Positions 18,001-21,000 of a stretch of 64,000 nt of DNA are shown piece after piece; the stretch's first letter is position 1, and every line of letters starts with the position of its first letter. Source of the stretch: Minisyncoccota bacterium (GTDB lineage: Bacteria; Patescibacteriota; Minisyncoccia; UBA6257; Brennerbacteraceae); assembly GCA_035451285.1 (NCBI GenBank), contig DAOTOJ010000002.1, positions 7,817 through 71,816 on the forward strand, written 5' to 3'. Position numbers: made by a program.

Positions 18001-21000
18001 ATGTTTGCACCATTTATTGAACTCCAATTTTCTGTCAGTTGTTTTTTTATTCTTTCTAGTATAATAATTAATATTTTTACAAACTGAACATTGAAGCTTA
18101 ATTAAATTTTCGCTATATTTTGATTTTGGTTTGCTTGCCATAATTTTTAATTATTTTTACTTTGAGCCAGAGGAGAGAATCGGACTCTCGACCTTTCCCT
18201 TACCAAGGGAACGTTCTACCACTGAACCACTCTGGCTTTAATGTGCCGAGGGTAGGATTCGAACCTACGTAGCCATAAAGGCGACGGTTTTACAGACCGC
18301 TGCAATTGACCGCTCTGCCACCTCGGCTCTTGTAAAGAATTATAATAAAAAAATTGTTTTAAATCAAATTTTTGATAAAATTAATAAGTTATATGGAAAA
18401 ACCCTTTGCTTTTAAAAATTTTTTACTAACCAATTTTTCGCCTAAACAAATATTTCTAAAAAATACTTTCTGGCTTTTTTTAGCTCAAATTATAAGCAGA
18501 ATTCTAAAATTTGTTTTAATAGTCATAGCTGCCAGAATTTTAGGGCCGCAAGAGTATGGCTCTTTTAATTATGTTTTGTCAATTGTTGGTTTCTTTTTTA
18601 TTTTTGCTGATTTTGGAATCAATACTTTAACTGTTAGAGATTACCAGCAAGGAAAAACTGATAAAAAATATTTAAATGCCTCTTTGTTTTTTAAAATTAT
18701 CTTGACCGTAGGATCTTTAATAGTTGCTTTTGCAGGATTATTTGTTTTTGAAAGCCTGGAATTTAGAAAGATTGCTTTGTTTCTGATCTTATTTAGTTTC
18801 TTAACCCAGATTAGGGAATATTTTTTATCTTTGAACAGGGCTCTTCAAAAAATGGAAAACGAATTTAAAGCTGTTTTAATTGAAAGTATTTTTAATTTAA
18901 TTTTGGGAATCGGCTTAGTAATAATTTATCGAAATGCTGTTTCTTTAAGCATTAGTTATTTTTTAGCTATTTTAATAAGCGTAATTTTTACAATTATTAT
19001 TACTTTAAAAAATTTTAAAGATTTAAAACCAGAATACAATAAAGAATTTTTGAAGTATTTTTTGAAAAATGGAACTCCACTTTTACTTTTTGGGCTTTTA
19101 AGTTTTATTTTCTTTTCAACTGATCAGTTTCTTTTGGGATATTTAAAAGGAGTAGAAAATGTCGGTTATTGGTCAATTATTACTAAAATTATTTCAATTG
19201 TTGAACTTTTTCCTTCGTTAATAATAACTGCTTTATTTCCTTATTTATCAAGTCAAGCTAATAATGTAGAAAAAAGCACAGAAATTTTTAAGAAGGTTTT
19301 AAGTTTTCTAATGGTTTGCGCCCTAATAATCAGTATTTTAGGTGTTTTATTATCCCCATTAATTCCGATTATTTTTGGAAAAGATTATTCCCCTTCAGTA
19401 GAATTTTTCAGAGTTTTTATTTGGATAATAGTTTTTCTTTTCCCAACTACTTTTTTAGATTCATTTTTGGTTGCTCACAATAGAATTTGGCAGGATTTTT
19501 ATTTTACAGTTATTGCTGCTATTTTAAATTTAGTTTTAAATATCATTTTAATTCCCAAATTAGGAATTTGGGGAGTTGTTTATTCCGGCTTAATTAGCCA
19601 ATTTGTTAATTTTTCTTTGACATTTTATTTAGGTTATAAAACTTTAGCAAACAAAAATAGCTGATTATCAGCTATTTTTGTTTGATACTTCCTCTAATGT
19701 GGTAAAAATAAAAACTTTTTATTTTTGCCACAGCAGAGGAGGTTTAAACTGCTGTGGTTTTCAAAGAACTATTTATAGTATAGCACTATTATTATAATTT
19801 GTCAAATATTAAAATTGCTTTTTAAATTAAATTTTAGTAAGCTTTTAATAAGCCGTTATCGTCTAGAGGCCTAGGACATCGCCCTCTCACGGCGAAAACT
19901 CGGGTTCAAATCCCGATAACGGCACTAATATGAACTATAATTAAAAAAATCGCCGGCTTTTTTAAAGCCGGCATAAAACTCAATCATTCTTATTTTCTAT
20001 GTATCGTCACTTCATCTCCATTAGTTTCGATAGTAATTCCAGTTTGTCTATCTGTTAACCTTAGACTGGGACTTGCAATAAAATCAATCTCGAATGGGGA
20101 ACCATCCGGTCCCCATCCATAGAGAATCCCATCGATGGAATTGTAATATACTTTCTCACATTCCGCCAAGAACAGAATCAACTCAGATACAGATTCAATC
20201 TCTTCCATAATATCCTCCTTTTATTGATTATTAAACACTTTTGTGATGCTCACTTTTTCTCCATCGATCTTTAAACCTTCACCAAAATCATCAGGATTAA
20301 TAATCACAAACGGTTTATCACTTGTCAGGGTTTCAGATTGAATCCTACTGAAAACTTGCTCCTCAAATGGTTCATCGGGATTGGTCCCGATAAATGCCCC
20401 ATTTTTAAGCACAACGGAGTTAGGACCATACTTTCCAATGTATTCCTTGACTAAAGGAAACAAATTTCTCCAATACATAGCTACCTCCTCTATTGTCGAA
20501 TAATAGTAACTTTTTCTCCGGAAATTCTCAATTCACTTCCGTCGTATAGTATAATTTACTTGCATTATTAGCCTCCTTTTTAAAGTATAATATATTATAT
20601 CACAGAACTATTTAAAAATCAATAGGGCAAGGCGCTTTCAACGAGTGAAGTTCAAATATCATTAAACTTTTTATTTCCACTCTTCAGTCTGCCTAACCAA
20701 TAGTTCTTTGGCTTTTTGAGGTTCTTTCATTATTTCTTTAACTATTTTTTCCATTCTCATTGCTTGAGAACCCTTAACTAAAATAACATCGTTTTGATTA
20801 ATTAAAGGAATCAACTTATTAGCCACCAAAGAAGAATTATTAAAATAAAAAATTTTATTTTTATCAAAACCATTATTTAGAGCTTTATCTCTGGCAAAAA
20901 CCATCCGCGGACCAACTAAAAATAAATAATCAGCAATTTGAGAAGCTAGTTTGCCAATTTCTTCATGAGCTTTTTGGGAATATTTCCCCAGTTCCAGCAT

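Follow-up and report, generated by a model that had tools for sequence, protein, structure and literature searches.

A probable birth-and-death array of small paralogous proteins between murF and tRNA-Glu in Candidatus Paceibacterota

What kind of locus is the compact set of small genes that lies between murF and tRNA-Glu in a Candidatus Paceibacterota genome (candidate phyla radiation (CPR)/Parcubacteria, ~30% GC), and why are its genes preceded by canonical Shine–Dalgarno (SD) sequences in a host without the matching anti-SD? We analyzed a window of 64,000 nucleotides (nt) from contig DAOTOJ010000002.1 of assembly GCA_035451285.1; all coordinates refer to this whole window unless a related locus is named. 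An initial annotation, made from the sequence alone, had described the set as a foreign two-gene cassette with a leader peptide, inserted at the tRNA gene and fitting a toxin-antitoxin (TA), toxin-immunity or inducible defence module. The two intact genes, for proteins of 85 and 72 amino acids (aa), are here called orf85 and orf72. Taken as a whole, the data are best explained by a different history: the locus is probably a tandem array of paralogous small proteins that is specific to its clade, has been inherited vertically and evolves by birth and death.

The same array with varying gene content in related lineages

Sister lineages were fetched using MurF as a handle, and only few relatives are present in the databases. 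About 28 contigs from digesters and wastewater carry an identical locus. An array was found between murF and tRNA-Glu in 4/4 related lineages, the window species included, and each has one intact copy or more. In the window species this interval contains a gene stump followed by the 85-aa and 72-aa genes. The L011-type species (MurF identity 87%) encodes three proteins of 76, 83 and 70 aa, while L014 (MurF identity 89%) encodes a single one of 70 aa. For L022, where a 919-nt contig holds only the last ~35 murF codons, there are two genes of 77 and 71 aa. Expressed as sequence types, the window carries a pseudogene of type A' followed by A and B, L011 carries A', A and B, L022 two genes, and L014 B only. 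The promoter, the first SD with its surroundings (AAAAGGAGG) and the terminator are common to all four lineages.

Direct BLASTP of orf85 against orf72 gave no alignment. Their relationship emerges when profiles are compared: hhalign of the A-type against the B-type profile yielded 88% probability with an E-value of 2.8e-6. All family members align end to end, with invariant G31, P37, G73 and V76 columns and the conserved motifs G..F.G..P..P[FL] and G[ED][KE]V, and the sequences from L014 and L022 bridge the A and B types (KDGAFCGFGPNGPF...VNGEEVKI). Judged by these alignments, orf85 and orf72 are diverged paralogues, visible as such only via intermediate sequences and profiles. Orthologues of orf85 in the sister species share 69-71% identity with it. 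The family hidden Markov model matches only this locus, with no extra copies in the window or in any of the loci. This bears directly on the toxin-antitoxin or toxin-immunity pair suggested at first, as the presumed partners are paralogous and occur in 1, 2 or 3 copies in the sister lineages. A two-partner module would not tolerate such variation in copy number and is not supported.

The AlphaFold2 models of both proteins display an N-terminal helix followed by a beta-rich body (predicted local distance difference test scores of 77 for orf85 and 84 for orf72); the orf72 model is composed of a helix and six strands. Neither model matched a known fold. Family members are 70-85 aa long and mostly acidic, with isoelectric points (pI) of 4.2-5.0 in 4 of the 7 members computed, and no signal peptide or transmembrane segment was seen by inspection. 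They are thus predicted to be small cytoplasmic proteins.

A word-indexed search of 5.8 billion proteins with orf85 and orf72 retrieved only the queries themselves. Exhaustive phmmer comparison of orf85 with 1.84 billion representatives found two true relatives, at 69% and 36% identity; a further match, the low-complexity repeat protein P0128, was regarded as spurious. No relatives were detected in phages or plasmids, using pattern scans of IMG/VR with both sub-family alignments and tblastn against phage and plasmid collections. The proteins had been considered possibly novel and free of recognisable motifs, which is in accordance with the lack of any match in Pfam and other libraries. On present database coverage they form a novel orphan family of small proteins, apparently limited to few Paceibacterota from anaerobic digesters and wastewater.

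The leading 10-codon open reading frame is a gene remnant

Ahead of orf85, the first SD of the unit is followed by a 10-codon open reading frame (ORF), MQVNYTIRRK, which had been taken for a leader peptide. In L011 the same promoter, SD and ATGCA begin an intact gene of 76 aa. Global alignment of the window with this A' gene shows that the start is kept, ~165 nt are missing inside and the tail is kept, reading DGSELRISGEKVTIIRQ before the stop in the window (TAG, 20490-20492) and SDGTKLIVSGEKVSIIRK before the stop in L011. In the window this tail is still readable and is out of frame with its start, so that the 10-codon ORF arises. An intact first-copy gene of 76-77 aa is present in two sister lineages, L011 and L022; in L014, a B-type gene is placed directly under this promoter and SD. 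The spacing from murF to orf85 is 193 nt in every contig of the window species, indicating that the deletion is fixed there. As read from this alignment, the 10-codon ORF is what an internal deletion left of the first copy and not a leader peptide.

The hairpin that was thought possible behind the short ORF fares no better than shuffled sequence: with a minimum free energy of -20.4 kcal/mol (z = -1.49), the 121-nt leader is equalled by 16 of 200 shuffles. A leader-peptide attenuator was rejected because the short ORF is not conserved as such in the relatives, L011 and L022 having the full-length gene at its place.

Vertical descent of the array

The unit was first proposed to have been inserted at tRNA-Glu. 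Between the window and the sister species, synonymous divergence (dS) of the A gene is 0.53-0.61, compared with 0.59-0.65 for murF and 0.56-0.58 for the flippase gene on the other side. Since the A gene resembles its flanks, the array diverged together with the genome. No integrase or recombinase was found; there are only small genes between murF and tRNA-Glu, and the flanks are housekeeping genes. The 8-mer GTTCAAAT, noted at first as resembling the tRNA T-loop and the only candidate for an attachment-site repeat, occurs 7 times vs 5.4 expected, 28 of 100 shuffles reach 7, and it is not at the corresponding position in the relatives. A tRNA-targeted island was rejected on these grounds: it would be one without integrase, without a direct repeat of the tRNA 3' end, without presence/absence polymorphism in four lineages and with a dS equal to that of the flanks. 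At tRNA-Glu the locus has a conserved border and not the scar of an integration. Overall, the comparison of the four lineages shows that the array has been at this place since before they split and that it is old and vertically inherited.

Within this stable position the genes themselves evolve rapidly. Between species, the ratio of nonsynonymous to synonymous divergence (dN/dS) amounts to 0.25-0.31 in A and, for window vs L014, to 0.24 in B, compared with 0.08-0.13 for neighbouring genes. Comparison of close strains gives 0.88 for B and 0.58 for A, vs 0.25 and 0.10. The remaining B-type comparisons are saturated (41-46% amino-acid identity). These ratios, together with the gene contents described above, are those of real coding genes under relaxed or partly diversifying selection, subject to duplication, deletion and pseudogenisation.

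The surroundings of the array are variable as well. In L011, 56-nt direct repeats of 86% identity flank the cassette (7571-7626 and 8597-8652 of that locus), each then followed by a short hairpin. Degenerate copies are found at 8553-8608 and inverted pieces at 7429-7459, and the repeats resemble intergenic repeats of the miniature inverted-repeat transposable element (MITE) type. We considered them as cassette ends and discarded this idea, as they are missing in the window species and the gap between murF and the cassette differs among strains (105, 238 and 321 nt). On the far side of murF, L011 carries two unannotated genes and a radical S-adenosylmethionine (SAM) gene (2290-5622), the counterpart of which in the window is a gene for a 455-aa protein without Pfam domains. 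Because gene content differs on both sides of murF, the whole murF neighbourhood is variable.

Composition points to a possible ancestral acquisition

The raised GC content noticed at first is borne out by calculation of codon statistics. GC content at third codon positions (GC3) is 0.33-0.34 for orf85 and orf72 vs 0.195 +/- 0.05 for the host, so that among host windows of equal length they rank in the top 0.1-0.4%, and their synonymous codon usage lies in the lowest 0.3-1.6% of host windows. Across lineages, GC3 is 0.31-0.41 in 3 of 4, and codon likelihood is in the lowest 0.1-2% for 5 of 6 genes. The initial annotation would have given way to relatives that all have the genes at this position with host-like composition. 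The first part is what we found, as related genes are at this position in all relatives retrieved; the second is not, as composition departs from that of the host in three of the four lineages. High expression is ruled out as the cause of the raised GC3 by the low values of ribosomal-protein genes (0.15-0.17). From GC3, codon usage and the canonical SDs, we infer that the common ancestor acquired the array from a more GC-rich, SD-using donor.

Layout of the locus

The positions first given for the promoter, SDs, ORFs and terminator proved accurate, and all of these features are present (Table 1). The array lies on the minus strand, bordered by murF and by tRNA-Glu(CUC), which is convergent with it. 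The promoter hexamers are kept in four lineages and the sequence upstream of the -35 hexamer is not; the terminator is near-identical in L011, L014 and L022. As had been described, positions 19941-20622 (minus strand) form a self-contained transcription unit with its own predicted promoter and terminator.

Table 1 Features of the murF–tRNA-Glu array, the neighbouring element and related sites in the 64,000-nt window.
Feature	Position	Strand	Remarks
Lipoprotein-like gene	1-1045	-	Runs off window edge; ATG 955; SD AAGGAGG 961-967; extended -10 at ~1026-1034
AATAGTTCTTTG site	1014-1025	-	Lipoprotein promoter
AATAGTTCTTTG site	11379-11390		Further site
RNA-like element	19645-19805	-	Between tRNA-Glu and flippase gene; strand and transcription putative
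AATAGTTCTTTG site	19762-19773	-	Start region of RNA-like element
tRNA-Glu(CUC)	19852-19925	+	Convergent neighbour
Intrinsic terminator (predicted)	19941-19973	-	GC-rich hairpin, stem GCCGGCTTT/AAAGCCGGC (19973-19951), plus T-run; shared with convergent tRNA-Glu
orf72, B-type	19990-20208	-	72 aa, pI 4.2
Third SD, AAGGAGG	20214-20220	-	Immediately after orf85 TAA; 5 nt ahead of orf72 ATG
orf85, A-type	20221-20478	-	85 aa, pI 4.8; stop TAA 20221-20223
Second SD, GAGGAGG	20484-20490	-	Serves orf85
Pseudogene stump, third (A'-type) paralogue	20490-20565	-	From alignment to the intact L011 gene
10-codon ORF, MQVNYTIRRK	20533-20565	-	First 10 codons of the A' stump
First SD, AAGGAGG	20572-20578	-	Originally served first paralogue
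Promoter (predicted)	20594-20622	-	-35 TTGATT, 17-nt spacer, extended -10 TGATATAAT (TATAAT plus upstream TG); 10/12 matches
AATAGTTCTTTG site	20601-20612	-	Cassette promoter
murF	20671-21993		
AATAGTTCTTTG inverted copy	20699-20710	+	Inside murF 3' end, 95 bp from cassette copy
455-aa protein gene	22174-23541		Counterpart of L011 2290-5622
16S rRNA	36037-37588	-	3' end at 36037-36050
AATAGTTCTTTG site	60892-60903		Further site

Canonical SD sequences in a host without anti-SD

The 16S rRNA of the window ends in GGAUGAUUUCUUUA, where the canonical sequence is GGAUCACCUCCUUA. It lacks CCUCC, the initial annotation having called the anti-SD degenerate: its 3' end reads GAUGAUUUCUUUA, so that CCUCC has become UUUCU. 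Loss of the anti-SD in a subgroup of Parcubacteria has already been published (PMC9297842). None of 57 host ORFs of at least 100 aa has an SD-like motif at its start. The statement that strong SDs are otherwise essentially absent from this genome holds for these ORFs and fails for one gene, since a systematic scan revealed a second SD-led locus at the edge of the window, a lipoprotein-like gene (MKRKKKNVLFLMLMFVLTVCFTLIVNGC...) with AAGGAGG ahead of its ATG at 955 and a GC3 of 0.40.

Against a canonical anti-SD, the cassette sites would pair with -11.6 to -13.4 kcal/mol (first SD -11.6, second SD, of orf85, -13.4), compared with -1.4 +/- 2.2 for host genes. Against the host 16S tail, they reach only -3.8 to -5.9 kcal/mol (first SD -3.8), whereas a true complement of this tail would pair at -13.9. 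Pairing with the host tail was therefore rejected as an explanation of the SDs: these values fall within the distributions of host genes (-2.3 +/- 2.0) and random 20-mers (-2.9 +/- 2.0). Sequences upstream of host genes are slightly less complementary to the UUUCU tail than random 20-mers (-2.26 vs -2.85 kcal/mol), and the mutated tail does not seem to serve as a new anti-SD.

Nevertheless, the window, L011, L022 and L014 all have the 9-nt AAAAGGAGG without any change, while neighbouring positions of the untranslated region (UTR) vary and the four lineages differ at about one third of neutral sites. Invariance amid such divergence indicates that this sequence is under selection in a host unable to read SDs canonically.

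A neighbouring RNA-like element and a shared 12-mer

A structured, RNA-like element lies ~80 nt past the far (5') end of tRNA-Glu and adjoins the array in all four lineages. Its near-consensus predicted promoter (TTGACA, 17 nt, TATACT, plus TG; 19805-19777; 11/12 matches) would produce a structured transcript of ~125 nt (~19772 to 19645), carrying ACCUCCUCUG and followed by a bidirectional terminator. Between species, the element is 90% identical vs 66-71% at four-fold sites. Rfam contains no family for the leader or the element at gathering or permissive thresholds, and no GTDB representative matched the element in a scan for its exact pattern.

The element may fold in two ways. A perfectly conserved 9-bp hairpin, CCACAGCAG/CUGCUGUGG with loop UUUAAACCUCCU, exposes CCUCCU in the loop, and in an alternative long hairpin CCUCCUCUG pairs with the element's own UAGAGGAAG, with one compensatory pair. 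The consensus fold buries the C-rich motif in a stem and the 9-bp hairpin exposes it. The ACCUCCUCUG segment is perfectly complementary to 9 nt of the ribosome-binding site (RBS) of orf85. When 79 gene starts were compared using RNAduplex, orf85 came first (-18.0) and the lipoprotein gene second (-14.9), the mean being -5.05 +/- 3.39.

The 12-mer AATAGTTCTTTG has 6 matches with at most one mismatch vs 1.2 expected, a number reached by 0 of 100 shuffles. Three of them lie at the three unusual promoters, those of the lipoprotein gene, the element (start region) and the cassette, and an inverted copy lies within murF (Table 1). The 12-mer may act as an operator or as a motif of start regions; the cassette promoters of L014 and L022 have not conserved it.

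Two further observations concern this element. The lipoprotein promoter with its first ~12 transcribed bases (TGCTATAATATAATAGTTCTTTAAAA) matches that of the element at 24 of 27 positions. Antisense to the element runs a short ORF (19678-19797, plus strand; ...VKIK.FY..HSRGG.NCCGFQRTI...) that is readable in three species, its counterparts being at 8827-8907 in L011 and 5762-5842 in L014 (minus in locus orientation). The conserved DNA itself probably accounts for this conservation, given that the start codons and ends of the ORF are not the same from species to species.

Weighing the explanations

Under the birth-and-death explanation, the ancestor of the four lineages would have acquired the array from a GC-rich, SD-using donor, with vertical descent thereafter. 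Copies turn over by duplication, deletion and pseudogenisation, while the same promoter, first SD and terminator are retained. The SDs would since have been retained under selection, for some function that does not involve pairing with the host 16S tail. As for function, the copies might be stoichiometric binders or inhibitors of the immunity or anti-effector type that neutralise an exogenous protein. This is a tentative guess of low probability. It would account for paralogues arranged in tandem, for evolution that is fast and in part near-neutral or diversifying, for the turnover in copy number, for the acidity of the proteins and for the strong constitutive expression signals.

Several results weigh against parts of this account. 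With regard to function, the proteins had no match in Pfam, PHROGs, PADLOC or NCBIfam and the family profile none among PDB sequences, a TaeI 'immunity' match is noise (13 bits vs a cut-off of 450), no toxin, secretion or defence gene adjoins the array, and the 20 kb of context contain no toxin gene. The structure models were built on alignments of 6-7 sequences. With regard to history, a search for the empty site that would betray an insertion (murF directly followed by tRNA-Glu) found none among the few relatives in databases; a MurF pattern scan of GTDB representatives returned nothing, and in MurF relatives at ~55% identity murF sits in the dcw cluster with other neighbours, which is uninformative. 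With regard to acquisition, no donor lineage was found, and the compositional signal is not uniform, the L022 copies having a GC3 of only 0.25.

The SDs invite another reading, in which they are kept as targets of the neighbouring RNA and which can stand beside the above account of the proteins. The ACCUCCUCUG of the element would be a copy of the anti-SD that the host 16S rRNA has lost, and the RNA would pair with the RBSs of orf85, other cassette genes and the lipoprotein gene, controlling their translation or stability. A switch between the 9-bp hairpin, with CCUCCU in its loop, and the long CCUCCUCUG/UAGAGGAAG hairpin would gate this control. Such a role is consistent with the conservation of the element well above the neutral level, its near-consensus promoter and terminator, a consensus structure that includes one compensatory pair and allows alternative pairings, and the 9-nt complementarity to the orf85 RBS, as well as with the first and second ranks of orf85 and the lipoprotein gene among 79 starts. 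The sharing of AATAGTTCTTTG by three promoters and the presence of the element beside the array in all four lineages point the same way. Each of these has its counterweight. The strand is deduced, with one mismatch favouring each strand, and the ranking is partly circular as only these genes contain GGAGG, most sites being complementary over the 6-nt core only. AATAGTTCTTTG is missing from the cassette promoters of L014 and L022, and co-occurrence is uninformative since there is no lineage without the element or without the array. It is just as conceivable that the element is an orphan 5' UTR or that it serves tRNA-Glu or the flippase gene. On balance we consider the regulatory role possible but doubtful. 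Its wider form is a small regulon in which the SD/anti-SD pair, once a general means of recruiting ribosomes, would have been repurposed as a private small RNA (sRNA)-target code for horizontally acquired genes (the array and the lipoprotein gene, the only ones in the region with canonical SDs); this appears somewhat less likely still.

The SDs and the raised GC could also be decaying relics of the old transfer, the genes being dispensable passengers that approach loss. One copy is already a pseudogene in the window and L014 is down to one copy; in L011-type strains the internal SDs have degraded to GAGG, GGAAGG and GGATGG, the dN/dS of B-type genes is 0.88 between close strains and GC3 has fallen to 0.25 in L022. 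On the other hand, neither the 9-nt first SD nor the promoter varies among four lineages whose neutral sites have diverged by ~1/3, every lineage has at least one intact copy and dN/dS between species is 0.24-0.31. We regard simple decay as improbable.

Finally, an inducible two-component module (TA, toxin-immunity or defence) with a translated leader peptide, recently inserted at tRNA-Glu, is very improbable, for what suggested it (a compact two-gene operon, tightly spaced and with a promoter and terminator of its own, unusual composition, the adjacent tRNA gene and the orphan nature of the proteins) is set against a leader that is a gene stump with no significant fold, two proteins that are paralogues, one-gene (L014) and three-gene (L011) versions, no match to TA or defence families in Pfam, PADLOC or NCBIfam, flank-like dS, the lack of an integrase and an 8-mer at chance level.

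Comparison with known systems

The candidacy of the locus as a toxin-antitoxin or defence system does not hold up, and the comparison with type II TA operons makes clear why. Like these, the locus in the window has two adjacent small genes, tight spacing and a single promoter; unlike these, its partners are paralogous, their number varies from 1 to 3, and there is neither homology to a TA family nor a DNA-binding antitoxin domain. Similarly, a short SD-led ORF ahead of structural genes recalls leader-peptide attenuation as in erm/cat-type and amino-acid operons, but here the ORF is a species-specific deletion product and no significant alternative-hairpin structure accompanies it.

In Firmicutes, sRNAs of the RsaE/RoxS type occlude SD sequences using C-rich loops. 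The element beside tRNA-Glu is similar: a promoter and a terminator of its own are predicted, and RBSs are complementary to its C-rich motif. It differs in that it has no Rfam match, that the motif may sit in a stem and that the host ribosome itself does not use SDs.

A rare strong SD in a genome that rarely uses SDs is found at rpsU of Flavobacteriia, where it serves autoregulation; in Bacteroidota the anti-SD is present but occluded. As in that case, a nearly SD-free genome here retains strong, conserved SDs on very few genes, implying that they have some special regulatory use. Unlike in the rpsU case, the host anti-SD is mutated to UUUCU and the genes are accessory orphans, not a ribosomal protein gene. 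As the anti-SD is mutated and not occluded, the reader of the SD motif must be something else. Such a reader, if found, would show how CPR bacteria without anti-SD express or regulate acquired genes.

The genes themselves can be compared with the orphan immunity-gene arrays of polymorphic-toxin systems, such as the immunity islands of contact-dependent inhibition (CDI) and type VI secretion systems (T6SS) and acquired interbacterial defence clusters. These consist of tandem, small, often acidic cytoplasmic paralogues with rapid divergence, copy-number turnover and atypical composition, and they can lack the toxin gene. The murF array departs from them: it resembles no immunity family in sequence or fold, toxin, Rhs, CdiA and secretion genes are missing from its vicinity, and its position is fixed, with vertical descent. 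It shares with them tandem, fast-diverging acidic paralogues, turnover of copies, atypical composition and the lack of a toxin gene. Rapid birth-and-death is a usual trait of proteins that take part in conflict or in interaction with a host, a group still poorly known in episymbiotic CPR bacteria.

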